This document shows positions 36,945 through 53,435 of a DNA stretch of 64,000 nucleotides, in pieces. Location: NCBI GenBank assembly GCA_963664395.2, contig OY761159.2:3456001-3520000 (forward strand), in the 5' to 3' direction. The first letter of the stretch is position 1, and every line of letters begins with the position of its first letter. Source of the stretch: Candidatus Binatia bacterium (lineage in GTDB: Bacteria; Desulfobacterota; Binatia; Bin18). The notes beneath the pieces were generated by a model. It saw only the letters and a program-made list of their open reading frames with translations. It was not told the DNA's origin and made no database searches. The translations under genes and the position numbers were made by a program.

Positions 36945-37388
36945 ATGGGAGCCCGCGGAACCCGACGCCAGAAGCGTGAGTATGCCCTCCAAATCTTGTA
37001 CCAGATTGATGTCAGCGGGGTGACCCCGCGGCAGGCGCTCGCGCTATTCGAGCAGTGCTTTGCCCAAGCAACCGAGGTCCGGGGGTTTACCGCAGATTTG
37101 GTGAACGGGACATGGAGCGAGCGGCGGCAGCTTGACAGTATGATAGCCGATGCCGCCGAACACTGGCGGATCGGTCGTTTGCCCAAGGTTGATTTGAATC
37201 TTTTACGCCTCGGCGCGTATGAATTGGGAGCCTACCCCGACTTATCTGCGGGGGTAACGATTAACGAAGCAATTGAAATTGCTCGCCGCTATTGCAGTGA
37301 TGATGCGCCGACCTTTGTCAATGGTGTGCTCGATCGGATAGCAGGTGTTGTTGGGAAGAAAGCACAGCCGCATGAGTCTCTCGAATAA
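36945..37388 (+). CDS. nusB: Transcription antitermination factor NusB
   Basis: [18 protein letters not shown] and FVNGVLD. Confidence 0.93.
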
Positions 37389-40086
37389 GCCGTCCAACGG
37401 AGCCGCGCCGGAAACGCCCGCAGGCGGCAAAGTGCGCTATCAGCCCAGCGTCATCGAGCCCAAATGGCAGCGTTATTGGCTGGAGCACAAGACTTTTCGT
37501 GCTGAGATCGATCGGCACAAGCAAAAATACTACATCCTGGATATGTTCCCATATCCGAGTGCCGCCGGCCTGCACGTCGGACACCCTGAAGGCTATACCG
37601 CAACCGATATCCTGGCCCGCTATAAGCGCATGCGGGGATATAATGTCCTGCATCCCATGGGCTGGGATGCGTTCGGACTGCCGGCGGAACAATATGCGAT
37701 TGAGACGGGCACGCATCCGCGTGAAACAACGGCCCGCAATATCGATACCTTTCGGCGTCAAATCCAAGCCCTGGGCTTTTCCTACGATTGGGACCGGGAG
37801 ATTGCTACTTGTGCGCCTGATTACTATCGCTGGACGCAATGGATTTTCCTCAAACTCTATGAGCGCGGTCTGGCCTATATGGCAGAGGTAGCGGTCAATT
37901 GGTGTCCGGCCCTGGGCACGGTACTGGCCAATGAAGAAGTGATAGACGGCAAGAGTGAGCGCGGCGGACACGAGGTCATCCGCAAGCCCATGCGGCAGTG
38001 GATGCTGCGGATTACGGCCTATGCGGAACGGCTGTTAGCCGGACTCGACGACCTGGATTGGCCGGAAAATGTCAAGGAAATGCAGCGCAACTGGATCGGG
38101 CGGAGTGAGGGCGCCCGTATTCGTTTCCGGCTGTGTCACGGCGATGGTACTGCGTTTGCGGAAGAGGATGCCTTTTTCGATGTCTTTACCACGCGCCCGG
38201 ATACGCTGTTTGGCGCGACCTATTGTGTCCTGGCCCCGGAACATCCCTTGGTTGAGCGTATCACCACCCCGAAAAATCGGGACGCGGTTGCGGCGTATAC
38301 ACAAGAGGCGCTACGCAAGTCCGACCTGGCCCGCACGGAATTGGTGAAAGAAAAGACCGGGGTCAACACGGGCGGCTATGCATTGAACCCCGTTAATGGC
38401 GAGCCGATTCCGATTTGGGTCGCCGACTATGTCCTGTTCACCTATGGAACCGGGGCGATTATGGCTGTGCCGGGCGGAGACGAGCGAGACTGGGCTTTTG
38501 CCCGCCAGTTTGACATCCCGATTGTTGAAGTGGTCCAGGGTGGGGATATCGAAACCGGAGCCTATACCGGAGACGGACCCCATGTGAACTCGGGCTTTTT
38601 GGATGGTCTCGACGTAGCCGCAGCCAAGAAAAAGATGCAGGCCTGGCTGGAGGAAAACGGACACGGCGAAGGCACGGTGAACTATAAGCTGCGGGACTGG
38701 CTGTTCAGTCGCCAGCGGTATTGGGGCGAGCCGTTTCCGATTCTCCATATAGACGGACAACCTCAGCCGCTTGCGCCACATGACCTGCCCGTACTCCTAC
38801 CCGAAGTCGAGAGTTTTCGACCAACCGGAACCGGCGAGCCGCCGCTGGCCGCGGCTCGGGGGTGGGTGGAGACGACCGAACCGGCATCGGGTCAGCCGGC
38901 GTTACGGGAAACAAACACTATGCCCCAGTGGGCCGGGAGCTGCTGGTACTTTTTGCGTTTCCTGGACCCGCAGAATGCGGACAAGCCGTGGGACGCGGAC
39001 CCGGAGCAATACTGGATGCCGGTGGATTTATATGTAGGGGGAGTGGAGCATGCCGTGCTGCACTTGTTGTATGCCCGTTTTTGGCACCATGTCCTGTATG
39101 ACTGTGGCCTTGTATCCACCCCTGAACCGTTCCAGCGCTTGGTCAATCAAGGTATGATCCTGGGCTTCAGTTATCGGTACTACCAAGACGAGCAGGGTCA
39201 TCGCTATGCGGCGCACGCCGTTGAGAAGATCACTCGAGACGGCAGCGAGGGGGCCGAGTACTCGCTCAAGGCGGACCCGACGAAACACCTCAGTGTGGAG
39301 TATGTGCCGGTAGACCAAGTGGTGTGGCGAGACGACAAGCCCTATCACCCGGATGATACGGACCTGGAACTGGAGCCCCAAACCGACAAAATGTCGAAAT
39401 CGCGGGGCAATGTCGTGAATCCTGATGTCGTGATTGCGGAGTATGGGGCCGATGCGTTGCGCTGCTATGAGATGTTTATGGGGCCGCTGGAACAGGTCAA
39501 GCCATGGAATACGCGCTCCGTTGCCGGGGTGTATCGTTTCCTGCACCGGGCCTGGGCGTTGATTGTCGCCGACACCGGCAGCCTGCGCTCGGACATTGCC
39601 GACATGGAACCGCAGCCCGACGCAGCGCTCACCCGCCTCTTTCATAAAACGGTGAAAAAGGTCAGGGAAGACATCGAAGGTATGCGCTTCCACACCGCGC
39701 TGAGCGCCCTGATGGTGTTTGTGAACGACGCGCAAAAGGCGGCTCGCCTGCCGCGGGTGCTGGCTGAGGGCTTTGTGCTGTTGCTCGCTCCCTTTGCGCC
39801 CCATCTGGGCGAAGAATTGTGGCAGCGTCTTGGGCACGCGGATACCCTGACATACGAAACCTGGCCGGCGTACGACCCGGAGCTCACTCAGGATGATACG
39901 GTCACCATCGCGGTACAGGTCAACGGAAAATTCCGGGCGACCATCGAACTTGCCGCTGACGCGGATAAAGAAGCGACCTTAGGCGCGGCTCGAAACCAAG
40001 ACAAAGTGGCCGCATATTTAGCCGGCAAGACCATCCGGCGCGAAATCGTTGTGCCGGGGCGACTGGTGAACTTCGTTATCGCCTAG
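37372..40086 (+). CDS. leuS: Leucine--tRNA ligase
   Basis: MFPYPS..GLHVGH, KMSKS and editing-domain FTTRPDT. Confidence 0.97.
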
Positions 40087-40120
40087 CGTCTTGTTGAAGA
40101 CTTCCCGGCGCAGGTCTTTC

Positions 40121-40699
40121 ATGAAGAAAGTGTGTTCCATTTTGATCGCCGTGTGTGCCTGCCTGTGGAGCGCGTGTGGCTATCATTTTTCTGGGGTCAC
40201 CTCCTTGCCGCAGGGCATCGACAGTGTGAGCTTTGCTGAATTCTCCAATCATACGCTTGAGACCGGTGTGGAAAAGGAACTCCAGTGGGCCATTGAGCGA
40301 GAGTTTCGGACGCATAGGAATATTCGGATAACCGACATTGGCGAAGGTGTGGTCTCCGTCCAACTCCAGAGGTTAGACCTGCGTCCGTTTTCATTTGACC
40401 GCCGCGCTCAGGTCCTTGAGTACGAAATGGTGCTTGCCCTCGATATCCAGCTCACCGACCGAGGGAGCGGGAAAGTCCTGTGGCAGGCAAACGATCTGCG
40501 GGTGACGGAATATTACAGCGCTATTCCCCAGGTCTTGGTGACGACCTCGCCTGAATTTCTGCAGGGAACGCTCGACCCTGGAGACCTGCCTGGCCTCACG
40601 GACGTGCAGTTCTCGGAGACGCAACGCCGCCTCACCATTACGCGCCTCTTTGCAGCGGCAGCACGTGAAGTCTATTTTCGCTTGGGCGACAATTTCTAA
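40121..40699 (+). CDS. lptE: LPS-assembly lipoprotein LptE
   Basis: Lipobox SACGY, FSNHTLETGVE; canonical position after leuS. Confidence 0.8.
   Translation: MKKVCSILIAVCACLWSACGYHFSGVTSLPQGIDSVSFAEFSNHTLETGVEKELQWAIEREFRTHRNIRITDIGEGVVSVQLQRLDLRPFSFDRRAQVLEYEMVLALDIQLTDRGSGKVLWQANDLRVTEYYSAIPQVLVTTSPEFLQGTLDPGDLPGLTDVQFSETQRRLTITRLFAAAAREVYFRLGDNF
40661..40699 (+). repeat. Left direct repeat (attL-like); the last 13 codons of lptE
   Basis: GCACGTGAAGTCTATTTTCGCTTGGGCGACAATTTCTAA; 37/39 identical to 51954-51992. Confidence 0.9.
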
Positions 40700-40949
40700 C
40701 TGTTTTTACTCTACCTCTGTATTGGTGGAGTTGCTGTTCCGCGTCCACGGATGAGGATTCCGATTCAGGGCGGCCCTGCTCCCCTCTCGGGAGGGGTGGC
40801 CGTAGGCCGGGGTGGGTCTCCCCCCAGGTACGCCCATATTTGAGAGATAAGAGCTGAGCAGCGGTCAAGTGAGCTTGACTCATACATGCCGATTGTTACC
40901 ATCTCGCATTTCCAGCAGTCGGTCCTTTTCCCGAGAGAGGAAATATCAC

Positions 40950-41414
40950 ATGCCCCGCAACGACCAAGTCATGCGCCAGTTGGTGCTGTTGCAGAAGTTA
41001 GACGGCTCCCGAGGAGCGACGCTACAAGAGTTGGCCGCATCCCTGCCTGAAGATTTATCGCGCCATCCGCGGACTATTCGGCGCGACCTCGAAGCTCTGG
41101 AACTCCGTTTTCCTCTGGTCATAGAGCAGAGAAACGGTCAAACGCGCTGGCGTCTCATGGACGGCTATCGCACGGCGCTTCCCCTGACGCTATCGGCAAC
41201 GGAACTCATGGCTCTGGTCTTCAGCCGAGATTTGCTGAAACCCCTGGAGGGGACTGAAATCAAGGCATCTCTGGACTCGGCCCTCAACAAGGCTGCGGCA
41301 GCGCTGCCGACTGACGGGGTGCGGCACCCTGAGCAGCCCCAGGGACATTTTTCTGTTGGGCTGGGCTCTCACAAGAACTACCGTCAACATCGACGTACCA
41401 TAGACCAACTCTCA
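40950..41414 (+). pseudogene. HTH-WYL (PafBC-like) transcriptional regulator, truncated before the WYL domain
   Basis: wHTH TLQELA...RTIRRDLEALE and linker LSATELMAL...LDSALNK. The family-like sequence ends at TIDQL, where a REP-like palindrome begins. Confidence 0.75.
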
Positions 41415-41417
41415 TAT

Positions 41418-41451
41418 CCCCTCTCCCCCTGGGAGAGGGTTAGGGTGAGGG
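41418..41451. repeat. REP-like palindrome at the WYL truncation point
   Basis: CCCCTCTCCCCCTGGGAGAGGGTTAGGGTGAGGG (stem CCCTCTCCC/GGGAGAGGG); a related element lies at 40779-40817. Confidence 0.6.
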
Positions 41452-41468
41452 AGAAAGGAACGCAGCGT

Positions 41469-41594
41469 ATGCCCTCGATTGATTTAGCGTTTCGCCTGAC
41501 TGGATCAGCCGTTCCGGTTGACCACGGCTATGCGTTGTACGCCGCGCTAGGCCGGATGCTGCTCTCAACCTTCAGCAAAATATCCGCCTCTTAA
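41469..41594 (+). pseudogene. cas6: N-terminal remnant of a Myxan-type (type I-B) Cas6/Cmx6
   Basis: MPSIDLAFRLTGSAVPVDHGYALYAALGR with its own RBS (GAAAGGA); matches the DL.F...G..+P.DHGY.LY.AL N-terminus I recall for Cas6/Cmx6. Confidence 0.7.
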
Positions 41595-41611
41595 ATAGAA
41601 GGACCATTTTT

Positions 41612-42598
41612 ATGGATGATTTCTCACCGTCTGATCTCAAAACCATTCTCCACTCAAAACGTGCCAATATGTACTACCTTCAACACTGTCGGGTATTGGT
41701 TAATGGCGGCCGAGTGGAATACGTAACCGATCAGGGTAAACAGTCGCTCTACTGGAATATTCCAATCGCCAATACGACATCTTTGCTTTTGGGGACGGGC
41801 ACCTCAATAACACAAGCAGCTATGCGCGAATTAGCCAAGGCTGGAGTATTGGTCGGGTTTTGCGGCGGTGGAGGCGCACCGCTGTTTGCGGCAAACGAAG
41901 TCGAAGTAGAAGTAGAAGTGTCTTGGCTTAGTCCACAGAGTGAGTATCGGCCTACGGAGTATTTACAGCACTGGGTCAGCTTCTGGTTTGACGAAGGCAG
42001 CCGTGTTGCCGCTGCGAAAGCGTTTCAACGCGTGCGCTTTGAACAGATTAGAAAACACTGGTTTGACTCAACAATGCAACGGGAAAGCGCATTTGGTCTC
42101 AGCGCCGCTGATCTCATTGCGATTCTTGATACGACACAAAAATCGCTGGAATCGTGTCAAACAACCAATGCCATTCTTTCGCTGGAGGCCCAGATTACAA
42201 AGCGCCTGTACAGACTCGCGGTCAATGCTGTTGGCTATGGAGAGTTCGTCCGCGCAAAACGTGGCTCAGGCTCCGATCTGGCCAATCGATATCTTGACCA
42301 TGGGAATTATCTCGCTTACGGATTAGCGGCCACCGCGGCTTGGGTACTTGGCTTACCTCATGGTCTCGCTGTACTGCACGGAAAAACCAGGCGTGGAGGG
42401 CTGGTTTTTGATATTGCCGATCTGGTGAAGGACGCTCTGGTCCTCCCGCAATCCTTCATTTCTGCAATGGCCGGTCAAGATGAACAAGAATTTCGCCAAG
42501 CCTGCATCCAACGATTCAACCAAGCCGAAGCGTTAGACACCATGATAGACTCAATCAAGTCTGCTGCCATTGAGTTCAGTAAAGTGCCGAAGCCATGA
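41612..42598 (+). CDS. cas1: Type I-F CRISPR-associated endonuclease Cas1
   Basis: ILHSKRANMYYLQHCRV, YWNIPIANT, LDHGNYLAYG and HGKTRRGGLVFD. Confidence 0.97.
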   Translation: MDDFSPSDLKTILHSKRANMYYLQHCRVLVNGGRVEYVTDQGKQSLYWNIPIANTTSLLLGTGTSITQAAMRELAKAGVLVGFCGGGGAPLFAANEVEVEVEVSWLSPQSEYRPTEYLQHWVSFWFDEGSRVAAAKAFQRVRFEQIRKHWFDSTMQRESAFGLSAADLIAILDTTQKSLESCQTTNAILSLEAQITKRLYRLAVNAVGYGEFVRAKRGSGSDLANRYLDHGNYLAYGLAATAAWVLGLPHGLAVLHGKTRRGGLVFDIADLVKDALVLPQSFISAMAGQDEQEFRQACIQRFNQAEALDTMIDSIKSAAIEFSKVPKP

Positions 42599-45500
42599 AT
42601 ATATTACTGATCTCTCAGTGCAATAAAAAAGCCTTGGTCGAAACGAGACGTGTTCTGGACCAATTTGCAGAACGCAAGGGTGAGCGTACCTGGCAAACAG
42701 CGATCACGCTGCAAGGTTTGCAGACACTCCGCAAAATGTTGAAAAAGTCAGCGCGGAGGAATACCGCCGTGGCCTGCCACAGAATCGGCGGGAAGAATTA
42801 TAGTGAATTGCTGTGGGTTGTGGGCAACACCAATAGGTTCAATACCGAAGGCACCATACCAACCAATTTCACCAGTCGGGACGTACTGAAGACGGATGAT
42901 GAGAACCAATGGCACACGGCAGAAGACATCGCCTTGCTTGCCGCGCTTGCCGCGCTGTTTCACGATTTTGGTAAAGCAAATGCGCTGTTCCAGAAAAAGC
43001 TGAAAGAACACAGAAACCTCTCGGAACCTTATCGTCACGAATGGGTGAGTTTAAGAATGTTCCAGTCTTTTGTTCGTGAAGATATGGACGAACAATGGCT
43101 GAGTCGATTGACCAAAGTTTCGAGTGAAGATGACGCACCCCTTTTGCAGTATCTCGAAACAATACAAGACCATCCAGACACGTTTCGTGCCCAACCATTC
43201 ACCGCCATGCCTCGCCTCGCTCAGGCTGTAGGCTGGCTCATCCTCACCCATCATAAATTACCCCGCTCGGTCGATCCTGTAGTAAACCTCAAGTGGATTT
43301 CCAACTTTCTGCACCAATCACTGTTGCCGAATTGGAATTCACCCCAAATCGCGACATATAAAGGCCACGATCTGACGGCTGCCATGAGAAAGGAATTACA
43401 CCAAGTCTGGCACTTCCCGGCAGGTACTCCATTTAGAAGCGACACGTGGTGCTCAAAAGCGCAGCGGATAGCTCGACGGCTGCTTGGCCGTCAGAGTATT
43501 TTTGTGCGTGACTGGCTTGATGACAGCTTCAGCATACATGTTTCGCGCATGGCGCTGATGCTGGCCGACCACCATTATTCGTCTTGTCCCAGCACCCCTG
43601 CCTATGGCGATGCCCGTTATACAGCGTATGCAAACACCGACAGAAAAACACGTCAATTAAAACAACAACTCGATGAACACCTGGTAGGCGTCTACAAACA
43701 TAGTTTGTGGCTTGTGCGCACCCTCCCAGGGCTGAGGAACACCCTGCCGGCAATCGGGCGGCATTCTGCCTTCAAGAGACGCACGCGGGACGGACGATTT
43801 CTCTGGCAGAACAAGGCCTATGACCTGGCCTATTCCCTGAAGGACCAGGCTCAGGCAGGCGGTTTTTTTGGGGTCAACATGGCGTCAACCGGTTGTGGCA
43901 AGACTTTCGCCAACGCGCGAATCATGTACGCCCTGGCTAATGAAAAACGCGGCTGTCGGTTTAGTGTTGCGTTGGGTTTACGAACCCTGACGCTACAGAC
44001 CGGCGACGCCTTCCGGCAGATATTGAATTTGGACGAAGACGATATGGCAGTTCTGATCGGTTCCGCTGCGGTCCGTAAACTCCATGAAGAGAAAAAGAAA
44101 GATGAAGATAATTTCAGCGGCTCAGAATCTGCTGATCCACTATTGGATACGGACTATCACGTGAGATATGAGGGGGCGCTTGCTGATAGTGCCCTCAGAC
44201 GCTGGTTAGAAGCCTCACCAAAACTCAACAGCATGGTCAGTGCGCCTATACTGGTCAGCACCATAGATCATCTCATGCCGGCGACGGAAGGCACTCGCGG
44301 CGGCAGGCAGATTGCCCCTATGCTCCGCCTGCTTACCTCAGACCTTGTGTTGGATGAGCCGGATGAATTTGGGCTGGCGGATGTGCCGGCGCTGACCCGC
44401 CTAGTGTATTGGGCTGGAATGCTGGGCAGCAAAGTCGTTCTGTCTTCCGCAACTCTGGCGCCCGCTCTCGTTGAAGGACTCTTCAAGTCGTATAGCGCCG
44501 GGCGGAATGCCTATAACAACAGTTGCGGGGACCCCCATCATCAGCCGCCTGTCTGCTGTGCCTGGTTTGATGAGACGAAGGCCGAGCACGCAACAATTGC
44601 CAATGCGGAAGATTTTTGTCAGCAGCACTCCGTCTTCACAGATAAACGTGCGGCTAGACTGGCGAACCTCCCTCCAAAACGAAAAGCCGAATTGTTGCCG
44701 CTGCCTGGCCAGACACAGAGCGCTCATGATGCGATAGCCACCTTCGGTGAGGCCATATCTGAAGGCATGCGGCAACTACATCAGCAACACTATCAGGAGA
44801 ATCGGGAGAACAATAAAAAGGTCAGCATCGGCTTGGTACGTATGGCCAACATCAGGCCACTCGTTGCAGTGGCGAAGTACCTGCTTCAATCGTCACCCCC
44901 GACTGATACGACTGTCCACTACTGCATTTACCACAGCCGGTTTCCACTGATTGTTCGTTCTGAAACCGAAGGTATTCTCGATGCGGTACTGAACAGAAAA
45001 GACCCGAAGAATATCTGGCAATTCCCCACCATCAAAAACGCGCTCAAGAGCACCGATACCACACACCATATATTTGTCGTGTTAGCCTCGCCCGTAGCCG
45101 AAGTAGGACGCGACCACGATTACGATTGGGCCATAGCCGAACCAAGCTCCATGCGCTCAATAGTGCAACTGTCCGGGCGTGTTCTGCGTCATAGAGATAC
45201 GCTGCCGGGAAAGCCGAACGTGCTCCTGCTGGAAAAGAACTACAGAGGCATGACAGGCAAACGGCCTGCTTTTTGTCGTCCCGGTTTCGAGCATAAAGAC
45301 AGGCCGCTTCAAACACGGAAATTGTCAAACAATTTACTCCCCGAGCAATATCGCGTGATCGACGCACGGCCCTGCCTCGTTCCGAGACCCCCCCTCCTTC
45401 CTACTCAAAACCTGGCTGATATGGAGCACAGAGAAATTTCTTTAACTTTCGACGACCCTGAAGATCCGCGTACCCCTCACGCCTTACAATGGCTCAAGCC

Positions 45501-45867
45501 CCATGCCACGCTGACCGGCGAGCTACAGCAACGCACCCCGTTTCGGCTATCGCTCAAAGAAGACGACTATTTTCTACAGCTTGAGGAAGATGATGAAGAA
45601 TTTACCGTTATGAAGTGGCATGAAACGGGCGAAGCAAAAGAATGCAACGAGATAGAATCCATCCCGCTTGAACTGAAGTCCGGGAATACAATCTGGGGGC
45701 ACGTCAGTTATACGGACGCCATGAATCGTCTGGCACAGCGGGAAGATATTGAGATGGAAGAACTCAGCCGTATCTACGGAGTCTTTTCACTGCCACAGAA
45801 TAAACGGACCGGCCGGCCTTGGTGCTATACCCCGGAACTCGGTTTCTATAAACCGCTGACGGACTGA
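42595..45867 (+). CDS. cas3: Type I-F Cas2-Cas3 fusion nuclease/helicase
   Basis: N-terminal Cas2 (ETRRVLDQFAER..RTWQT), HD motif FHDFGKA, MASTGCGKT, DEPD and EVGRDHDYDW. Confidence 0.96.
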   Translation: MNILLISQCNKKALVETRRVLDQFAERKGERTWQTAITLQGLQTLRKMLKKSARRNTAVACHRIGGKNYSELLWVVGNTNRFNTEGTIPTNFTSRDVLKTDDENQWHTAEDIALLAALAALFHDFGKANALFQKKLKEHRNLSEPYRHEWVSLRMFQSFVREDMDEQWLSRLTKVSSEDDAPLLQYLETIQDHPDTFRAQPFTAMPRLAQAVGWLILTHHKLPRSVDPVVNLKWISNFLHQSLLPNWNSPQIATYKGHDLTAAMRKELHQVWHFPAGTPFRSDTWCSKAQRIARRLLGRQSIFVRDWLDDSFSIHVSRMALMLADHHYSSCPSTPAYGDARYTAYANTDRKTRQLKQQLDEHLVGVYKHSLWLVRTLPGLRNTLPAIGRHSAFKRRTRDGRFLWQNKAYDLAYSLKDQAQAGGFFGVNMASTGCGKTFANARIMYALANEKRGCRFSVALGLRTLTLQTGDAFRQILNLDEDDMAVLIGSAAVRKLHEEKKKDEDNFSGSESADPLLDTDYHVRYEGALADSALRRWLEASPKLNSMVSAPILVSTIDHLMPATEGTRGGRQIAPMLRLLTSDLVLDEPDEFGLADVPALTRLVYWAGMLGSKVVLSSATLAPALVEGLFKSYSAGRNAYNNSCGDPHHQPPVCCAWFDETKAEHATIANAEDFCQQHSVFTDKRAARLANLPPKRKAELLPLPGQTQSAHDAIATFGEAISEGMRQLHQQHYQENRENNKKVSIGLVRMANIRPLVAVAKYLLQSSPPTDTTVHYCIYHSRFPLIVRSETEGILDAVLNRKDPKNIWQFPTIKNALKSTDTTHHIFVVLASPVAEVGRDHDYDWAIAEPSSMRSIVQLSGRVLRHRDTLPGKPNVLLLEKNYRGMTGKRPAFCRPGFEHKDRPLQTRKLSNNLLPEQYRVIDARPCLVPRPPLLPTQNLADMEHREISLTFDDPEDPRTPHALQWLKPHATLTGELQQRTPFRLSLKEDDYFLQLEEDDEEFTVMKWHETGEAKECNEIESIPLELKSGNTIWGHVSYTDAMNRLAQREDIEMEELSRIYGVFSLPQNKRTGRPWCYTPELGFYKPLTD

Positions 45868-45911
45868 AACCGGTATGTTCACCGCCGGACGGACCGCTAA
45901 GAAAGGATTTT

Positions 45912-47177
45912 ATGGACGGACTTGCCACACACATTCTGGAATATATCCAGGAGCGTAGAGATGAGAAACTGAAAAAAGAAAAGGACGCTGCCAAGCAACT
46001 GGAAATTACAGCTAAGCACGAGCCTGAAACCTGGCTGAGCGATGCGGCCCGGCGAGCAAAACATCTCACCCTTGCCACTCATTCTCCTAAATATGTTCAC
46101 CCGGACGCTAATGGCACCAGCATCAACTCTATGAGTTCGGACAAAGTCGGTGACGGATACATCTCCACGCAGAGCGTGTCGGAGATTCCATACGACGTGG
46201 TTGGGACCGCCGCTGCACAGGCTGTCGGGAATTTCCTCTTGCTTGAGCACGAAGGGCAAATCCTGATTGACACCTTACGGCGGGGCGAGAATGCGCCGCT
46301 CCTCGCAATTGCACCCGATGCGGATACGGCCCAAGAGTGGGCGGATGGGTTTTTGTCAGTGCTGGCGTCGTCGGAGCCGAGCGCTCACAAGTTTTCAAAG
46401 CAGTGTTATTGGCCGGTGAAAATCGATGAATACCATATCCTCATTCCTCTCTACGCCACCTCACTGGCGCACACGCTCCACTCTACTATTCAACACGCAC
46501 GATTCTCCGACGAAGCCAAAGCAACCCGTGAACTTCGTCGAAAGGAAGAGTATTCCGAGCAGGAAGATATCCGTTATCTGGACATTGCCGTTCAGGGCTT
46601 TGGCGGAACGAAACCCCAAAACATCAGCCAACTGAACAGTCAGCGTGGCGGCAAAGCCTATCTTGTTTCGTGCGAACCGCCGGATTGGCAACAGCAGGCC
46701 ACCCCACCCCTGCACATCAGTTCCATTTTTCACCAGCGCTTTGAACGCAGTTTGTATCGTGAACACATTCAGCCGTTACACGATTTTCTCCAGCGCGTCG
46801 CCGACAAGCCCAATAATGACAGAATCAAAAAACAACGCGCCCAACGTCTGGATGAAATTGTCTACGAGATTTTGAATCTGGCCGCGTTTATCCAGAACTT
46901 ACCGCCTGGGTGGAGTAAGGACCCTGCCTGCCAGTTGAAACATGAGGAACAATTCTGGCTCGATCCTGGTAGGTCCGAGACGGATGAGGAGTTCCGGGCT
47001 CAGCGGGACGCAACGGACTGGCCGGTCCAGGTCGCGCAGAACTTCGCCATCTGGCTCAGTCAAAAACTTGAGAGCGACACGCTTGCCTTCGGCGCGATCG
47101 AACAGCGTGAATTGCGATCTCTTCTGGAACCTGAACTACGGCACAATTTTATGACAGCGGAGGAGGAAGGACTGTAA
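45912..47177 (+). CDS. csy1: Type I-F Cas8f (Csy1)
   Basis: WLSDAARRA, ATH..K..HPD and FGGTKPQNISQLNS.RGG. Confidence 0.93.
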   Translation: MDGLATHILEYIQERRDEKLKKEKDAAKQLEITAKHEPETWLSDAARRAKHLTLATHSPKYVHPDANGTSINSMSSDKVGDGYISTQSVSEIPYDVVGTAAAQAVGNFLLLEHEGQILIDTLRRGENAPLLAIAPDADTAQEWADGFLSVLASSEPSAHKFSKQCYWPVKIDEYHILIPLYATSLAHTLHSTIQHARFSDEAKATRELRRKEEYSEQEDIRYLDIAVQGFGGTKPQNISQLNSQRGGKAYLVSCEPPDWQQQATPPLHISSIFHQRFERSLYREHIQPLHDFLQRVADKPNNDRIKKQRAQRLDEIVYEILNLAAFIQNLPPGWSKDPACQLKHEEQFWLDPGRSETDEEFRAQRDATDWPVQVAQNFAIWLSQKLESDTLAFGAIEQRELRSLLEPELRHNFMTAEEEGL

Positions 47178-48103
47178 TGGATTTTGTGATTATATTACGA
47201 AACCTGAAGGTCCACGGAGCCAATGCCATTACCGGCTTTACCTGGGGTTTTCCGGCGATCACTCACTTTCTGGGTTATACGCATGCCTTACAACGAAAGT
47301 TGCCGGAAAAGTTCGACCTCAGTTTTGACGGCTGCGGCCTCGTTTGCCACACACACCAAGTGCATGCGCATAAACCCTCTCCCTATGCTGACTCTCGTTT
47401 TGCGTTGAGTAGAAATCCGCTCGACAAGAGCGGTAAGTCCGCTTCATTTGTCGAAGAGGGCAAGATGAATATGGAAGTCACGCTTCTCATATCGGTTACG
47501 GAAAATTCTCAGGTTGATGTAGAGGGAAGAGAAGAACTCATTGGCTTTTTGTCACAGCAATCGGCAAGGCAGCGCTTGGCCGGTGGCCTTATTACGAACG
47601 CGCCAACCGTTGAGATTGCGGATGTCCAGGACGAGAAGCACAGCAAGAGATTGCTCCGCAGCCTGTTGCCGGGTTTTACGCTGGTGAGTCGTCACGATGT
47701 ATTGCTTGCCGAGCAGGACCGACAACGGAAGGCCAACACACCGGAGCCGGAATTGGCGGCTTGGTTGTCGTTTTCTTCCCTGCGGTATGCCGCCGATCAG
47801 GACAAAACAAAGGATGGGAAGACTCCGTGGCGATTACAGGAAAAATCCTACAAAGGCTGGGTCAAGCCAATCGCCATTGGCTACAAGCGCATTTCGCAGT
47901 TGTATGAACCCGGCGCAATCGCTAAAACACGCGATGCTTCTTCGCCGGCCTGTTTTGTTGAAAATCTTTATTCCATAGGGCAATGGCTCAGCCCGCACAG
48001 AATCAGAGAACTGAGCCACCTGTTCTGGCAGTATGAATACACCGAGTCAGGTGCATACGTATGCAGCAATAATTACCGACCCGCAATTGACTACATAGAC
48101 TGA
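47177..48103 (+). CDS. csy2: Type I-F Cas5f (Csy2)
   Basis: [26 protein letters not shown] and GQWLSPHRI. Confidence 0.93.
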
Positions 48104-48128
48104 GAGATTGACGAGGAGGAGAGTGAAT

Positions 48129-49157
48129 ATGGCACAGTTAAAGACCGCATCAGTTTTGGCGTTCGAGCGTAAATTGGCGAATTCCGATGGCCTGATGTAT
48201 TCGGGCAGTTGGGAGAATCGAGACAAGGTGGAGTCCTGGTCTCCGGTGACGCTCCACGAGAAATCAATACGCGGCACCATCTCAAATCGCCAGAAAAACG
48301 CTATTGCTTCAGACCCCTTGAAACTCGACAACGAAATCCAAAAGCCCAATTTGCAGACAGTCGATGTGGCCGTATTACCGTTCCAACATGACACGCTGAA
48401 AGTGTCGTTCACGCTACGGATATTAGCCGGGCTGGACCAGCCGTCAGCCTGTAACAGCCAGGACTATCAGGAGGCATTGGGTAAAACGATCAATACGTAT
48501 ATCGCCGAGCACGGTTTTGCCGAATTATCCAAACGCTACGCCACAAACATTGCCAATGGCCGCTTCCTGTGGCGGAACCGGGTGGGAGCCGAGGCGGTCA
48601 ATGTCAGTGTGACCCGGTATCGAGACCGGGAACCGCTGGGCAAATGGCGCTTTGACAGTAACAGCATCTCCTTACGTAAATTCGACACGACGGACACACA
48701 GGTATCCGAGCTTGCAGCCGCCATTGAAGCCGGCCTGAAGGGAGACGAGTTTACGTTTTTGAAGATAGAAGGCTTTGCCCGTCTCGGCGAGGGACAGGAG
48801 GTGTTTCCCTCACAAGAACTCATTTTAGACGGACGCAACAACAGGGAGGGCAAGAAGAGTAAAACGCTCTACCAAGTCGGGGACATCGCCGGTCTTCATT
48901 CTCAAAAAATTGGCAACGCCCTGCGAACAATCGATACCTGGTATCCCGAAGCGGACCAATTCGGCCCCATATCGGTCGAACCTTTTGGCTCCGTCACCAA
49001 TCGCGGGAAGGCATATCGCCAGCCCAAAGACAAGCTGGATTTCTACACACTTCTTGACGGTTGGGTATTAAGGGGAAAGACACCTGCGGTAGAGCAGCAA
49101 CATTATGTTATGGCGGTGCTGGTTCGAGGCGGCGTGTTCGGAGAAAAATCAGAGTGA
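48129..49157 (+). CDS. csy3: Type I-F Cas7f (Csy3)
   Basis: [41 protein letters not shown] and LVRGGVFG. Confidence 0.95.
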
Positions 49158-49166
49158 GTTGACACA

Positions 49167-49718
49167 ATGGACCACCACGTTGATATCACAGTGCTTCCCG
49201 ACCCGGAATTTCCAGAAACCACATTGATGAATGCACTTTTTGCCAAGTTGCACCGGGCGTTGGGCAAACACGGTCACGGCAAAATAGGGGTGAGTTTTCC
49301 AGACCACAGCAAGACGCTTGGGGCACGCCTCCGTCTGCATAGCAGCAAAGGAGCGCTTGAAGAGTTCATGCAAACGAGTTGGATCACTGGCATGACGGAT
49401 TATTGTCATGTCGGTGATGTTCAACACGTGCCCCCTCTGACCTTATTTTGCACAGTCAGGCGAGTCCAAGCGAAAAGCGCCTCCAATAAACGGAAACGTT
49501 CGGTGGCAAAGGGCTGGTTGGATGAATCCGAAGCGCAGAAGCGTATTCCTGATTCTCAGCAGCGAACGCTTGATCTGCCCTACGCTCAACTACGCAGCTT
49601 ATCGAATGGGAATATGATGCGCATTTATATTGAGCATGGTGAGCTGGTCCAACAATCGGTAGAAGGGCCATTTTCCGCCCATGGTCTCAGCAGCACTACT
49701 ACCGTACCCTGGTTTTAA
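49167..49718 (+). CDS. cas6f: Type I-F Cas6f (Csy4) endoribonuclease
   Basis: LPDPEF, KLHRAL (catalytic His), IGVSFP, RRVQAK and GLS..TTVPWF. Confidence 0.95.
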   Translation: MDHHVDITVLPDPEFPETTLMNALFAKLHRALGKHGHGKIGVSFPDHSKTLGARLRLHSSKGALEEFMQTSWITGMTDYCHVGDVQHVPPLTLFCTVRRVQAKSASNKRKRSVAKGWLDESEAQKRIPDSQQRTLDLPYAQLRSLSNGNMMRIYIEHGELVQQSVEGPFSAHGLSSTTTVPWF

Positions 49719-49847
49719 CCCTTTTTTTCCAGGTATCCATAACATCTTGATTTACCTACAGATTTTTTAGGGGTTCGTATTAAGGTAAAATTACTGCGTT
49801 TTACCCGAACTCCTGAAAAATCAACAGCTTACGCGTATATTCCTACG
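49719..49847 (+). promoter_or_regulatory. Type I-F CRISPR leader with two IHF-consensus sites
   Basis: AT-rich; begins CCCTTTTTTT; WATCAANNNNTTR matches at 49819-49831 (+, AATCAACAGCTTA) and 49740-49752 (-, AATCAAGATGTTA). Confidence 0.8.
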
Positions 49848-51531
49848 GTTCACTGCCGGACAGGCAGCTAAGAAATAGCCCAACCGGGATACTGTGATCG
49901 GAACATCGTTCACTGCCGGACAGGCAGCTAAGAAAATTGGGGGGCACCAGTCCCGAGACGGTAAGTGTTCACTGCCGGACAGGCAGCTAAGAAAAGAACA
50001 AACGGACGGGCTAGACCAGCGGTTCACTGCCGGACAGGCAGCTAAGAAATAAGAGGGCAGCCTTGGAGCGCTAACCCGTTCACTGCCGGACAGGCAGCTA
50101 GTCGTTCACTGCCGGACAGGCAGCTAAGAAAAGCTAAGAAATCCATGGCCACGATACTGCCGGACAGGCAGCGAAAACAAACTGTTCACTGCCGGACAGG
50201 CAGCTAAGAAATACGTCAATGCAGGAACCCGCCGAACGAAGAGTTCACTGCCGGACAGGCAGCTAAGAAAACTACACGTCCGCCACGTCCTCCCCCGTCG
50301 TTCACTGCCGGACAGGCAGCTCCACCGTCCTAGGTTCACTGCCGGACAGGCAGCTAACGGCCTTCCAAGACGTCGTTCACTGCCGGACAGGCAGCTAAGA
50401 AAGAAGATGGCGCATACGTTGTCATTGAATGTTCACTGCCGGACAGGCAGCTAAGAAAAAAGCCGCGTTCCGATCGCATAGAGGAGATAGGTTCACTGCC
50501 GGACAGGCAGCTAAGAAAACCTACATGGACATCCTGAGGCCGACGGCACGGTGTTCACTGCCGGACAGGCAGCTAAGAAATTACATGTTGCGGGCACGGC
50601 ATGCTTTTGAGTTGTTCACTGCCGGACAGGCAGCTAAGAAAACCAGAGCAATGCGCGTACATGGGCCGACCTCGTTCACTGCCGGACAGGCAGCTAAGAA
50701 ATTAGCCTGGGCCGCTCTCGCTGGTATGGTATCGTTCACTGCCGGACAGGCAGCTAAGAAAAAGGGGTACGACCTGGGCCAAAAAGGCACCCAGTTCACT
50801 GCCGGACAGGCAGCGAAATCACCGAACGCTGCACCCGTTGCTGTCCCGCCGTTCACTGCCGGACAGGCAGCTAAGAAAATGCACACTGCCGGACAGGCAG
50901 CTAAGAAAATGAGCAACGCCGAGTCGCCTCCAGGTTCACTGCCGGACAGGCAGCTAAGGGTAGCGTTCACTGCCGGACAGGCAGCTAAGAAAAAGAGAGA
51001 AAGCTAATCTTTTTCTGTCGGAGGTTCACTGCCGGACAGGCAGCTAAGAAAATAAATATACAAGACTGCGCGGCAGCCGAACCGTTCACTGCCGGACAGG
51101 CAGCTAAGAAAAGCAGTACGACCTTGATCGAGAATAAAGCGACGTTCACTGCCGGACAGGCAGCTAAGAAATTGATACCCAGACGATATCCGGCCTTATT
51201 CGGGTTCACTGCCGTACAGGCAGCTAAGAAATACAACACCAACGTCGTTCATTACGACCGGAAGTTCACTGCCGTACAGGCAGCTAAGAAAAACGATGGG
51301 GGATGTGTCAGGGTTGAGGGGCTGTTCACTGCCGTACAGGCAGCTAAGAAATAATACGGCAGACCTGGAGAGCCAGGCATGACGTTCACTGCCGTACAGG
51401 CAGCTAAGAAAAAGAGAGAAAGCTCTATCTTTTTCTGTCGGAGGTTCACTGCCGTACAGGCAGCTAAGAAAAAGAACGGCCCCCACGGGTAGGACGGCCT
51501 GTAGTTCACTGCCGGACAGGCAGCTAAGAAA
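49848..51531 (+). CRISPR. Type I-F CRISPR array, ~32 repeats / 31 spacers, many units partly deleted
   Basis: 28-nt repeat GTTCACTGCCGGACAGGCAGCTAAGAAA (variant ...CCGTACAGG... in five trailer-side repeats); modal spacer 32 nt. Confidence 0.98.
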
Positions 51532-51915
51532 TTACTGACAAAACTTCTCCATCAAGAAGGGCATCGTCTCCATGTTCACGCATGTGGCGAAATGCGTCAT
51601 CCCAGCGGCTCCGGGGCTGTCTGGCCGGACGCCAATTCTAAGGAAGTCAACTACTTAGGCCGTCGTGCAGCCCCAAAATCAAAGTCGATTGGAAATTTTC
51701 CCCGGAAAGGGGGGGATAAAGGGGCGGTACAGGGCCTTTGAAGCCCCGAAAAAAGGGCCGAATTACGATCAGGCCCTCCCTTGGCCGGCTTTTACAGAAA
51801 TTCGGCCTCTGGATGCCGGATCACGTCCGGCATGACAAGAGCGTAGCGGCATGGCTACAGCGTGAAACACTCTCGTTGAGTGAAAAAATCACCGGCCTTG
51901 CCTGACAGGGAATGC

Positions 51916-51950
51916 CTGCTGGATACCAATATCGTCTCGGAACCGCTACG
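51916..51950 (+). pseudogene. Short N-terminal fragment of a PIN-domain (VapC-like) toxin
   Basis: Translates as LLDTNIVSEPLR, the typical PIN beta1 motif, and is cut off by the right direct repeat. Confidence 0.5.
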
Positions 51951-51953
51951 GCG

Positions 51954-51992
51954 GCACGCGAAGTCTATTTTCGCCTGGGCGACAATTTCTAA
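51954..51992 (+). repeat. Right direct repeat (attR-like); displaced copy of the lptE 3' end
   Basis: GCACGCGAAGTCTATTTTCGCCTGGGCGACAATTTCTAA; both differences from the left copy are synonymous. Confidence 0.9.
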
Positions 51993-52000
51993 TGGAAATG

Positions 52001-52023
52001 GAAAAGGGGCCAAAGTGCCCCTT
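52001..52023. terminator. Hairpin between the displaced lptE end and the convergent rpsT (probable rpsT terminator)
   Basis: AAGGGGC-CAAAGT-GCCCCTT stem-loop preceded by an A-rich tract (T-rich on the minus strand). Confidence 0.55.
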
Positions 52024-52033
52024 GACGACGGAG

Positions 52034-52306
52034 TTAGGCCGAAGCGGCGGTCTTGTGTTTGTGGACGAGTTTTGAAAGCTGACCCACATGACGGTCTGCG
52101 GCTTTTTTGGGAATAAGACGTTTCTGACCCGCCCGATGGAGTGCGCTGACCGCCGTCCGCAGAGAACTCTCGACTGCGTCGCTCTCTCCCCTCACGACCG
52201 CTGCTTCTACTTGTTTCATGAAGGTCTTCACCCGTGATTTTGCTGCGTGGTTACGGACTTTCCGAACCTCGCTCTGACGATGTCGTTTCTTTTCTCCTGA
52301 TGCCAC
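52034..52306 (-). CDS. rpsT: 30S ribosomal protein S20
   Basis: KRHRQSE...RNHAAKSRVKT and LIPKKAADR; basic, 90 aa. Confidence 0.88.
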   Translation of the reverse strand: MASGEKKRHRQSEVRKVRNHAAKSRVKTFMKQVEAAVVRGESDAVESSLRTAVSALHRAGQKRLIPKKAADRHVGQLSKLVHKHKTAASA

Positions 52307-52516
52307 GTAATACTCCTCTCTTGAACATTATTCCTACCATGGGTAGGGAGACTGATCAATGTCGGGCAAGAGCTGGTGGCCGAGGAGGACGGCCGGGCAA
52401 AAGGGCAAAGGTGGACACCGTGCTGGCCCGGTCGCTGACGCATTTTTTGTTGCGTTCCGCATTCCCAATCTTCTCCGGCGTCTCGTCGGTGAGGGGGCAA
52501 AGATGAACTACCGGCC

Positions 52517-53359
52517 TTACTGGGTATCCTGCCCCAACGCCTGCTTGGCCTCCTGCCACAATTCCTCCAGCCGCGTCAGTGAGGTCTGATGGATATCCTC
52601 CCGGCTGTGTGCGAGTTGCTCTTCGATGTAACGAAAGCGTTTGTTGAAACGCCCGTTGGCTTTGCGCAGGGCAGACTCGGCATCCAGGTCAAGATGGCGG
52701 GCCAGGCTCGTCAAAGCAAGCAACAGGTCTCCGAGCTCATGTTCCTGGTGCTGTGTGTGAGTGGTTGCCAGTGCTGCTTCCAATTCCTTGTACTCTTCCG
52801 CCACCTTTTCAAAAACCGCGGTGGCTGACGGCCAGTCAAAGCCGACTCGGGTGGCCTTTTCGCCTAAACGCTGAGCCTGGATTAAGGCTGGCGCGCCTTT
52901 GGGAACACCCGCCAGGATGGATTGATCCGCGGTTCCTTTTTTGTCCTTTTTTGCCTCTTTTTCTTTTTTTTCTTGGGCTTTAATTTTGGCCCAGTTCCGA
53001 CTGACCTCTTCGGCGCTCTCGACTTTCAGGTCACTGAACACGTGCGGATGGCGGCGGGTCATTTTATCGGTAATGGCTTGGGCAACATCGTCAATAGTAA
53101 ATTCACCAGCTTCGGCCATCAACTGAGAGTGAAAAACGATCTGGAGGAGTAAATCGCCCAATTCCTCTTTCAGCTCAGTCCAGTCTTCAGCCTCAAGCGC
53201 CTCCAGCACTTCGTAGGTCTCTTCGACGAGGTAGGGCTTGAGTGTCTGCGGCGTTTGCTCTTTATCCCACGGGCAGCCGTTTGGACTGCGGAGGGTCGCC
53301 ATAATTTCGACGAGTCGATCAAATGCGGGATGGGTAGGGCCTGCCATGGCAGACGGCAT
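52517..53359 (-). CDS. mazG: Nucleoside triphosphate pyrophosphohydrolase MazG
   Basis: LRSPNGCPWD.EQT, EETYE, EELGDLLLQ, RRHPHVF and GFDW. Confidence 0.95.
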   Translation of the reverse strand: MPSAMAGPTHPAFDRLVEIMATLRSPNGCPWDKEQTPQTLKPYLVEETYEVLEALEAEDWTELKEELGDLLLQIVFHSQLMAEAGEFTIDDVAQAITDKMTRRHPHVFSDLKVESAEEVSRNWAKIKAQEKKEKEAKKDKKGTADQSILAGVPKGAPALIQAQRLGEKATRVGFDWPSATAVFEKVAEEYKELEAALATTHTQHQEHELGDLLLALTSLARHLDLDAESALRKANGRFNKRFRYIEEQLAHSREDIHQTSLTRLEELWQEAKQALGQDTQ

Positions 53360-53435
53360 AAAGGAAAAGCGGACAGAAGGCAAGAACCGAGCCGGACTGA
53401 AGCACGTAGGCTGATGGGCCATATCCCGTGCAACC

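Follow-up and report, generated by a model that had tools for sequence, protein, structure and literature searches.

Tn7-like I-F3 CRISPR-associated transposons have tnsABC and tniQ but neither cas1 nor cas2-3. Among integrative islands, SGI1 integrates at the 3′ end of trmE (PMC8409611), and its tandem integration has been described (PMC2297512). The defence hotspots cDHS1 and cDHS2 of Pseudomonas aeruginosa and those of the Escherichia coli pan-genome combine fixed core flanks with highly variable defence cargo; many occupied sites have no recognisable mobile-element genes, and transfer via the flanks is proposed as a possibility (PMC10250203, PMC10121019, PMC5635113). How complete CRISPR-Cas loci move between or within chromosomes is poorly understood, and it is least understood in uncultured symbionts.

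We analysed a window of 64,000 nt from a sponge-associated Candidatus Binatia MAG (5,036,955 bases; estimated contamination 5.4%) and compared it with assembled short-read contigs of four public metagenome runs, including X7 and X2. In this window leuS (37345..40086, + strand; Pfam tRNA-synt_1_2, tRNA-synt_1 and Anticodon_1) is followed by lptE (40091..40699, + strand; Pfam LptE, E=2.4e-08), an order found in every relative examined; lptE homologues occurred in 40 of the 41 genomes searched. A repeat search showed that the last 44 nt of this functional copy (40656-40699) recur 11293 nt away at 51949-51992, forming a two-copy direct repeat, D7, with 41 of 44 positions identical (93%). The first-pass annotation had reported a 39-nt lptE end recurring with two synonymous differences. 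We found that pair at 40661-40699 and 51954-51992; the extended repeat has three differences, all at synonymous third positions (GCA/GCG at 40660, CGT/CGC at 40666 and TTG/CTG at 40682). With the last 70 nt of lptE as query, the two D7 places were the only matches in the whole assembly. The downstream copy (51949..51992, + strand) is a native lptE end cut on its 5′ side, an lptE′ remnant that by alignment has lost about 75 nt relative to the one in G004. Only 41 nt (51993-52033) separate it from the convergent stop of rpsT (52034..52306, − strand; Pfam Ribosomal_S20p, E=2.7e-19), and within them lies a hairpin (52004..52023; RNA fold −12.3 kcal/mol) that is likely a two-way terminator. The hairpin is conserved in relatives with an empty site, and the hairpin and rpsT context after the downstream copy is exactly theirs. 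Removing the interval would, as the same annotation noted, leave the two stops about 40 nt apart with the hairpin between them.

Of the 28 genomes of the genus, all of them MAGs, 27 were scored for the lptE-rpsT gap. The gap was empty in 11 (15-50 nt, hairpin only) and occupied in 16 (142-18,989 nt, or 0.14-19 kb). All loci examined had constant flanks: leuS-lptE preceded the gap, and rpsT followed it, with murJ and/or mazG next. This one 40-nt gap holds four CRISPR-Cas subtypes within a single genus, namely type I-F in this genome, I-B in G022, I-E in G019 and I-C in G014, and remnants of an I-C accessory module occur in four further genomes. Cargo other than CRISPR comprises a PIN/Phd pair in G005, HTH_37 in G012 and small ORFs elsewhere. 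The expectation that relatives would show empty sites and variable cargo was therefore borne out. Turnover is recent, since the sister genomes G007 and G022 (100% support, distance about 0.047) differ by a 9.8-kb system at this site, which is empty in G007. Other junctions are used in G014, where the I-C system directly follows the native lptE stop, and in G006, where the insert lies beyond the terminator.

Comparison of the inserts places the I-F block (40852-51618) inside what appears to be an older scaffold. Its left end module (40700..40775) is unique in this genome; in G004 and G005 it matches the first 98-131 nt past the lptE stop with 81–86% identity, and in G041 the identity is 91% over 73 nt. 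The core of this module (40721-40773) also occurs inside the gaps of G012, G018, G006 and G023, and within the genus the module is confined to the lptE-rpsT locus, save one weak match in G002. The right end module (51909..51948) has counterparts immediately before the remnants of G004 (93% identical) and G005 (90%). Together with the remnant it is homologous in this genome, G004, G005, G041 and G019, and it could be aligned with G012, G016, G018 and G023, where this homologous stretch bears further deletions. G004, G005 and G041 have both end modules and the remnant in inserts of 1.1-1.4 kb without cas genes. The repeats had been taken to bound the unit that brought CRISPR-Cas; they belong instead to a scaffold shared with cas-less relatives. 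A dead lptE end is present at 8 of the 16 occupied sites (seven genomes besides this one). The remnants with an intact 5′ edge (n=7) all begin at one point some 75 nt ahead of the stop, and two different upstream sequences abut this one start. In G018, the lptE end and the left module are present twice, in tandem. The interval also contains REP-like short repeats of family R1 (40776..40825; 42 other matches in the genome) and family R2 (51803..51877; 33 other matches), and an R2 copy follows the I-F array in G004 as well.

The type I-F block (40852..51618, + strand) consists of a regulator remnant, cas genes, a CRISPR array and a mazE fragment. Its homology to the G021 locus extends from 40852 to 51618, with 41611-50881 being 82.6% identical over 9.4 kb. 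The truncated WYL-type regulator (40869..41413, + strand) has retained its HTH end but neither the WCX domain nor the remainder of the WYL domain. Its ORF gave no WYL or WCX Pfam match, and its residues 11-194 are 66–71% identical (tblastn) to full-length HTH_11-WYL-WCX proteins of 327-334 aa, which precede cas1 in G021 and G004. Next comes a short palindromic repeat (41419..41451) that is very abundant in metagenomes: the 451-nt bin containing it had a depth above 900 in three of the four runs and of 138.6 in the fourth, and every run showed loose ends to either side of it. A cas6′ N-terminal remnant (41470..41594, + strand; positions 1-28 of 191 of Pfam Cas6, PF09559, E=4.8e-05) is also found before cas1 in G004 and has a full-length homologue at the lptE site of G022. 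The remaining cas genes, all on the + strand, are cas1 (41612..42598; Pfam Cas_Cas1), the cas2-3 fusion (42595..45867; Pfam Cas3_I-F_Cas2, Cas3-like_C_2 and Cas3-like_C), csy1 (cas8f; 45912..47177; Pfam Cas_Csy1, E=1.5e-121), csy2 (cas5f; 47177..48103; Cas_Csy2, E=1.2e-92), csy3 (cas7f; 48108..49157; Cas_Csy3, E=8e-149) and csy4 (cas6f; 49167..49718; Cas_Csy4, E=4e-61). Csy1-4 and the I-F Cas2 domain of Cas3 gave near full-length Pfam matches. Just upstream of csy1 lies a degenerate CRISPR-repeat-like sequence (45876..45903, + strand; 24/28 matches to the array repeat) that is also present in G021 and G004. The array of 28-nt repeats (49848..51531, + strand) contains 25 full Rfam CRISPR-DR4 matches above the gathering score and five partial ones. 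The mazE antitoxin gene fragment (51545..51618, − strand) is 81% identical over 74 nt to DNA downstream of the G021 I-F array, and 79% over 67 nt to the mazE of this genome at the GT87-LPG synthase locus, a gene with a Pfam MazE_antitoxin match that adjoins a PemK_toxin gene.

Csy3 occurs in 5 of 301 genomes of the class, all in this genus. In four relatives a homologous I-F block is found elsewhere, at the GT87/LPG-synthase locus (G021, G022 and G007) or at an amidase locus (G004), without flanking repeats at either. Both of these loci lack an I-F block in this genome, and the block here bears a mazE fragment from one of them (GT87-LPG synthase). The idea of an element family delivering CRISPR-Cas between lptE repeats was not supported by these observations. 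The I-F and I-C blocks of the lptE-rpsT site also occur at other fixed sites, and no recombinase gene was found at lptE-rpsT.

We scanned ORFs of at least 70 aa that were not overlapped by a longer ORF, 14 from the window and 59 from the inserts of ten relatives. Pfam detected no integrase, transposase or resolvase family among them, and the 34 scanned ORFs without a Pfam match had no PHROG match; hallmark genes of known mobile elements were absent from the inserts scanned. The first-pass annotation was thus right that no integrase is on board, and the ten relatives' inserts have none either. A Tn7-like I-F3 transposon was rejected, as cas1 and cas2-3 are present and the 14 ORFs include no Tns or transposase family. 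Neither a circular form nor an excision product was seen among the assembled contigs of the public runs, although contigs cannot show rare forms.

The alleles of the dead and working lptE ends bear on how the site was founded and, with the purely synonymous differences between the two copies here, speak for a copy of foreign origin. Over its last ~55 nt, the G004 remnant departs from the empty sister G002 at only 2 positions, against 6 for the working copy of G004. The initial 17 nt of the remnants belong to a different allele type. A TAG stop occurs at 4 of 6 empty sites among close relatives and in the remnants of G041 and G005 (CAG in the G004 remnant), and the 13 working copies with an insert directly after the stop (excluding the I-C system of G014) end in TAA or TGA. 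The incoming type reaches further 3′ in the G041 and G005 remnants than in G004, which suggests that the crossover switch points differ between them, with few informative sites and gene conversion possible. Crossover points that are apparently unlike between genomes would fit homologous recombination better than an integrase. Dead lptE ends that recur with the same start, together with the G018 tandem, argue that recombination has targeted the lptE 3′ end more than once. Two bases found in no relative are present in both copies here, so that conversion or a very close donor would be needed.

We favour, with moderate confidence, the reading that the site is an integrase-less, core-gene-flanked defence hotspot, founded by one or more crossovers in the lptE 3′ end and later remodelled. 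In this genome the interval would be what fills a variable, long-lived site that separates the convergent essential genes lptE and rpsT. Foreign DNA bearing an lptE end of its own (the last ~75 nt) would recombine with the chromosome inside that stretch by a single reciprocal Campbell-type crossover, for which host homologous recombination would suffice. The left product would be a working hybrid lptE; on the right, the native lptE end would lie dead next to the old terminator. Such a founding crossover would have taken place at least twice in the genus. The scaffold of left module, right module and remnant may then have acted as a permissive landing pad whose content was exchanged, deleted, tandem-duplicated or, between the repeat copies, lost with precision. 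Here a complete type I-F block, derived from or common to another chromosomal locus, would have been placed in the scaffold as one unit. Against the crossover model, informative positions are few (3 here, about a dozen in relatives), and gene conversion could blur or mimic the pattern. The arrangement in G041 and G005 fits variable crossover points and later conversion alike, and two sequences at one remnant start are what an att boundary would give, as a site-specific recombinase working in trans might produce.

Three other accounts seem to us unlikely to a similar degree. The first-pass annotation regarded lptE as an attachment site, and an integrative element family could use the lptE 3′ end as attB and carry CRISPR-Cas as cargo, its insertion and excision driven by a tyrosine or serine recombinase that was lost or acts in trans. 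The direct repeats with the gene restored, the precise empty sites scattered through the tree, the common remnant start in seven genomes with its two abutting sequences and the G018 tandem all agree with this, as does a within-species variant in X2, represented by a single contig of depth 5 with 4 differences over 1200 nt, whose sequence diverges precisely at the lptE stop. To that extent the suggestion held. What weakens it is that none of the 16 occupied sites yielded a recombinase family, that apparent crossover points vary among genomes, and that G014 and G006 use other junctions. Moreover, the I-F block lies within the older scaffold here and at repeat-less sites in four relatives, the left module was not found in the viral and JGI metagenome collections, and no further lptE-end copy exists outside this locus in the 28 genomes of the genus, so that no resident attP-bearing element was found.

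It is similarly doubtful that lptE was never repeatedly targeted and that a single ancient illegitimate or one-sided homologous insertion, duplicating the lptE end once, was followed by vertical descent, deletion, unequal crossing-over of the two copies and allele replacement via the conserved flanks. The homology of right module and remnant across genomes, and the shared left module, point that way; scaffold divergence (80–93%) is similar to that of the flanking genes, and recombination between direct repeats of 44-75 nt can yield both tandem and empty forms. However, the remnant here follows its own lptE allele and not the other remnants, the three differences are all synonymous, as between two working alleles, and a single accident does not readily give one remnant start abutted by two different sequences or empty and occupied sites interspersed down to sister species. 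An equally tentative possibility is that defence cassettes home via a carried ~75-nt lptE arm, moving in and out by crossover without a recombinase of their own, and that I-F and I-C blocks hop among a few sites by an undescribed mechanism, perhaps aided by the abundant REP-like repeats at their borders. An assembly artefact, with the second copy or the island's placement being a chimera of the long-read MAG assembly, is very improbable: despite the estimated contamination, an irregular leader-proximal half of the array and small indels in X7 contigs at 50276, 50294, 50601 and 50814, a check of the second copy found X7 contigs spanning the left (39500-40816) and right (51808-52307) junctions with 0 differences and a contig from another study's run, X2, spanning the right one (51807-52360, 8 differences), and homologous scaffolds with remnants exist in seven other genomes; X7 is possibly the source sample, so its support is not fully independent.

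Under the favoured reading of a hotspot founded by crossover, the duplicated lptE end would be a readable scar that reveals the course of the founding events, at least. The site could then be a natural model for integrase-free immune-system turnover, and the gap also suggests a neutral insertion site for this lineage.

Because core-flanked hotspots without mobility genes have already been described in Pseudomonas and E. coli, the finding extends that picture and does not overturn it. Like those hotspots, the lptE-rpsT site has fixed core flanks, variable defence cargo and no mobility hallmark genes. Unlike cDHS1, cDHS2 and the E. coli hotspots, it is bordered by two essential genes that converge at a distance of about 40 nt, and CRISPR-Cas dominates its cargo. 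It also has a duplicated gene end with a common boundary, a feature absent from the descriptions of those hotspots on which we draw. With islands of the SGI1 type it has in common a duplicated target 3′ end, an intact gene and a tandem arrangement; those islands encode an integrase themselves and known plasmids mobilise them, whereas here the occupied sites lack a recombinase and crossover points seem to vary. As in Tn7-like I-F3 elements, a type I-F system stands just downstream of a conserved gene. The system itself resembles type I-F1 of Yersinia and Pseudomonas in having cas1, a cas2-3 fusion, csy1-4 and an adjacent array of 28-nt CRISPR-DR4 repeats, and it departs from that type in the truncated WYL regulator and the cas6 remnant of an I-B-like system that precede it and in the repeat-like sequence upstream of csy1.

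We found that the final 44 nt of the lptE open reading frame (40656-40699) recur at 51949-51992, with 41 of 44 positions identical at an offset of 11,293 nt (repeat search, family D7), and that these two copies, both at this locus, are the only ones in the whole 5.04 Mb assembly of this genome (G000). All three mismatches (40660, 40666 and 40682) are synonymous third positions in the frame read from the sequence, and both copies agree with the first-pass annotation, which had described a 39-nt core with two differences, both synonymous. The interval lies between leuS (37345-40086) and lptE (40091-40699) on one side and rpsT (52034-52306, minus strand) and mazG (52517-53443, minus strand) on the other, all assigned by Pfam. 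That annotation had also placed a convergent rpsT stop about 40 nt away with a hairpin, and the second copy indeed lies 41 nt from the rpsT stop, with a hairpin of -12.3 kcal/mol. The downstream copy is the native one: the short motif, hairpin and rpsT that come after it are those of relatives where the gap between the lptE and rpsT stops is empty; the working copy is followed by a 76-nt left module (40700-40775) that is unique in the genome. As a side observation, rpsT and mazG are 210 nt apart in this genome (52307-52516) and murJ, about 1.75 kb, intervenes in most relatives; the sole murJ-like match in the assembly, at C1:2.65 Mb, is a paralogue with 35% identity, and murJ may have been lost, the assembly being 95.9% complete.

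Contigs from public metagenome runs were aligned to 39500-53000. The runs containing the stretch include sponge metagenomes. Contigs of run X7, which may be the source sample, span the left and right junctions with 0 differences, and the right junction is also spanned by a contig of X2, a run from another study; an assembly chimera as the origin of the second copy is very unlikely. Neither an empty-site joint (40699-51993) nor a circle junction was among the 15 joints listed, of 29 in all, for four runs' contigs, which are blind to rare forms. Listed joints with just 22-30 nt on one side, such as 41109-50612 in run X10, were set aside as repeat or cross-organism artefacts. A 1532-nt contig of X2 matches 39500-40699 with 4 differences and then continues for 239 nt with no match in 39500-53000; this single contig, at depth 5, suggests a near-identical strain with other DNA from the exact lptE stop onward.

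The interval contains a complete type I-F system (Pfam): cas1 (41612-42598), cas2-3 (42595-45867), csy1 to csy4 (45912-49718) and a CRISPR array of 28-nt repeats (49848-51531; 25 full and 5 partial matches to Rfam CRISPR-DR4). Upstream of cas1, a WYL-type regulator gene that has been truncated (40869-41413) is followed by a short palindromic repeat (41419-41451) and by a 41-codon N-terminal remnant of cas6 (cas6'), and a mazE fragment (51545-51618) lies 3' of the array. A 40-nt right module (51909-51948) then precedes the second lptE end, hereafter the remnant. G+C is 0.50-0.54 within the interval and 0.55-0.60 outside it. An Rfam scan of 39900-52600 (E up to 0.1) returned CRISPR-DR4 only, with no match for the end modules or for a repeat-like site at 45876.

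Several further features of this block were observed. Three REP-like families border or interrupt it: a genome-wide short repeat directly after the left module (40776-40825; 42 other copies in the genome), the palindromic repeat upstream of cas1, and a second genome-wide short repeat (51803-51877; 33 other copies), of which a copy also lies 3' of the I-F array at a different locus in the relative G004. The 451-nt bin containing the palindromic repeat has a depth above 900 in three of four metagenome runs and of 138.6 in the fourth. Between cas2-3 and csy1, a degenerate CRISPR repeat (45876-45903) matches the array repeat at 24 of 28 positions, with some 8 nt separating its end from the start of csy1. 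G021 and G004 have it too, in G004 with the stem preserved through changes on both sides, and G022 and G007 lack it; it could serve as a site for Cas6f binding or for self-regulation. The array is irregular in its leader-proximal half (50072-50960), with truncated repeats, spacer-less repeats and short spacers, and two copies of one spacer, near 50993 and 51412, differ at 2 positions. Small indels at 50276, 50294, 50601 and 50814 distinguish X7 contigs from the window, and X10 contigs carry different spacers between the same array repeats; the irregularity may reflect long-read assembly errors or true array heterogeneity.

We then scored the lptE-rpsT gap in 27 of the 28 genomes of the genus in the collection, G015 having no lptE match. 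Eleven gaps are empty, with 15-50 nt between the stops and the same hairpin in the close relatives among them, and 16 are occupied by 142 to 18,989 nt. The first-pass annotation had named empty sites and alternative cargo in relatives as its test, and both were found. Besides type I-F in this genome, the cargo comprises type I-E (G019, 19 kb), type I-C (G014, 8.4 kb), type I-B of the Myxan kind (G022, 9.8 kb), a PIN/Phd pair (G005) and an HTH_37 protein (G012); the other occupied gaps hold small ORFs with no family matches. In G022, cas6 and cas3 of the I-B system are each split into two ORFs (L033 1236-1900 and 2186-4123), which could be decay or sequencing error. Occupied genomes are interspersed with empty ones on a leuS+lptE tree; the empty G007 and the I-B-bearing G022 are sisters (100% support, distance about 0.047). 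Of the 81 mismatches between these two over 1900 nt, 6 lie in the final 55 nt, which hints only weakly at a breakpoint.

Dead lptE ends were present at eight of the 16 occupied sites (G000, G004, G005, G012, G016, G018, G019 and G041), and in the seven remnants with an intact 5' edge the homology begins at one common point, about 75 nt before the stop. The proposal that the end of lptE is a repeated target of recombination is thus borne out. In this genome the remnant lacks its 5' part: alignment of the right ends indicates that a deletion of about 75 nt took the beginning of the remnant with it, and 51909-51948 aligns with the right module of G004. We had considered 51927-51948 as a decayed part of the remnant and rejected this, since the alignment places that stretch in the right module. 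A larger deletion has removed the terminal remnant wholly in G012, G016, G018 and G023.

The first-pass annotation held that no integrase is on board, and the scans agree. Among ORFs of at least 70 aa, excluding those overlapped by longer ones, Pfam matches included no integrase, resolvase or transposase family for 14 ORFs of the window, 59 insert ORFs of ten relatives, or 41 ORFs around the I-F loci of four relatives. The 34 insert ORFs with no Pfam match gave 0 PHROG matches, and PADLOC recognized among them only Cas8 and Cas5 of G022.

The idea that the lptE repeats are the ends of an element delivering CRISPR-Cas did not survive. The scaffold of left module, right module and remnant also occurs in G004, G005 and G041, whose 1.1-1.4 kb inserts at the site carry no cas gene, and the I-F block occurs elsewhere at loci without such repeats. 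Csy3 was found in five of 301 genomes of the class, all five within this genus. The block lies between a glycosyltransferase cluster and LPG synthase/modCBA in G021, G022 and G007, and between an amidase and a hydrolase in G004, with no flanking direct repeats at E up to 0.05 in any of the four; both loci are without an I-F block in this genome. A full-length WYL regulator precedes cas1 in G021 and G004, and the palindromic repeat and cas6 remnant also occur in the G004 block. The same arrangement at other loci therefore indicates that regulator, cas6' and I-F genes travel as one block. We rejected replacement in place of a G022-like I-B system by an I-F cassette, a reading drawn from the WYL gene and cas6 remnant, as G004 has WYL-cas6'-cas1 at another locus. 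The counterpart in this genome of the G021/G022/G007 locus (L097, C1:4790200-4793600) holds two I-E-like repeats and a mazE/PemK pair, which makes it a second landing site for CRISPR. In the window, the 74 nt that come next after the array are 81% identical to DNA downstream of the G021 I-F array and 79% to this genome's own mazE at L097, so that the block 40852-51618 arrived with a piece of that other locus. The I-F systems of G022 (L094 5425-8617) and G007 (L095 9326-9351) look broken: in G022, cas2-3 is interrupted by about 3.2 kb and csy1 is in pieces, and in G007, cas2-3 lacks residues ~210-960.

Type I-C behaves in the same way. G002, empty at lptE, carries an I-C system with 82-83% identity to the one in G014; it lies at a fourth locus, next to a CoA-transferase (L098 and L099; G002:C6:1200100-1226000; 11 repeats). 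The small-ORF module preceding it is also found in the lptE gaps of G006, G012, G018 and G023, where the cas genes have been lost. A 123-aa ORF without a known family precedes the G002 system and persists on its own in the lptE gaps of four relatives; it may have an accessory or regulatory role in the I-C block. The outer edge of the small-ORF module forms the core of the left module in the window, and the site is therefore a palimpsest in which three or more layers can be told apart: an old scaffold, traces of a module of I-C type, and the I-F block. The left module, searched as a 29-letter degenerate pattern, had no match in JGI metagenome contigs or viral contigs.

Several observations suggest that the working lptE end is foreign. 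The three synonymous differences in this genome are what two working alleles would show, and would not be expected had a dead copy decayed; taking about 1/4 of random changes as synonymous, we estimate the chance of all three being so as near 0.02. Compared with the empty sister G002 over the last ~55 nt, the G004 remnant has 2 differences and the working copy 6. Over their first 17 nt the remnants represent a different allele type, found in the working gene of G023 only. Stop codons divide along the same line: TAG at four of six empty sites of close relatives (TAA in G043 and G021), TAG in the remnants of G041 and G005 (CAG in G004), and TAA or TGA in the 13 working copies with inserted DNA directly after the stop, the G014 I-C insertion excepted. 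Such a reciprocal pattern is expected if the chromosomal lptE end recombined, in one crossover, with incoming DNA that had an lptE end of its own. In G018 the lptE end and left module form a tandem pair whose right ends differ, which means either two or more such events or subsequent unequal crossing-over. The point of allele switching seems to differ between G004 and G041/G005, which speaks for homologous recombination over an integrase, a picture that gene conversion could mimic. Two bases common to both copies in this genome and absent from every relative require either conversion or a very close donor.

Junction types also differ among relatives: the I-C system of G014 directly follows the native TAG stop with no duplication, and the G006 insert lies beyond the hairpin. 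In G022, G006 and G014, rpsT has a CRISPR repeat directly beside it. The gap takes DNA by more than one route, and a permissive site fits better than one att mechanism. Of the reading of lptE as an att site, the repeated target, the empty sites with alternative cargo and the lack of an integrase stand, and the repeats as ends of a CRISPR-Cas-delivering element do not.

The feature is genuine, with good support, and we class it as a defence hotspot that lies between core genes and lacks an integrase. The literature searched, at title and abstract level, yielded no description of lptE as an attachment site. PMC8409611 describes SGI1 at trmE, an island that restores the 3' end of a protein gene; such islands share the duplicated gene end with the lptE site but carry an integrase. 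The closest described phenomenon is the defence hotspot flanked by core genes, for which a section of PMC10250203 proposes homologous recombination through the flanks as a possible route of transfer. In E. coli, according to portions of PMC10121019, one hotspot has no detectable mobile element in 68% of occupied cases, and the I-E CRISPR-Cas locus occupies a fixed hotspot. Within this class of loci, the lptE-rpsT hotspot is unusual in how clearly its founding scar can be read and in how strongly it concentrates CRISPR-Cas subtypes, and the way in which whole CRISPR-Cas blocks move among a few landing sites is its point of greatest interest.
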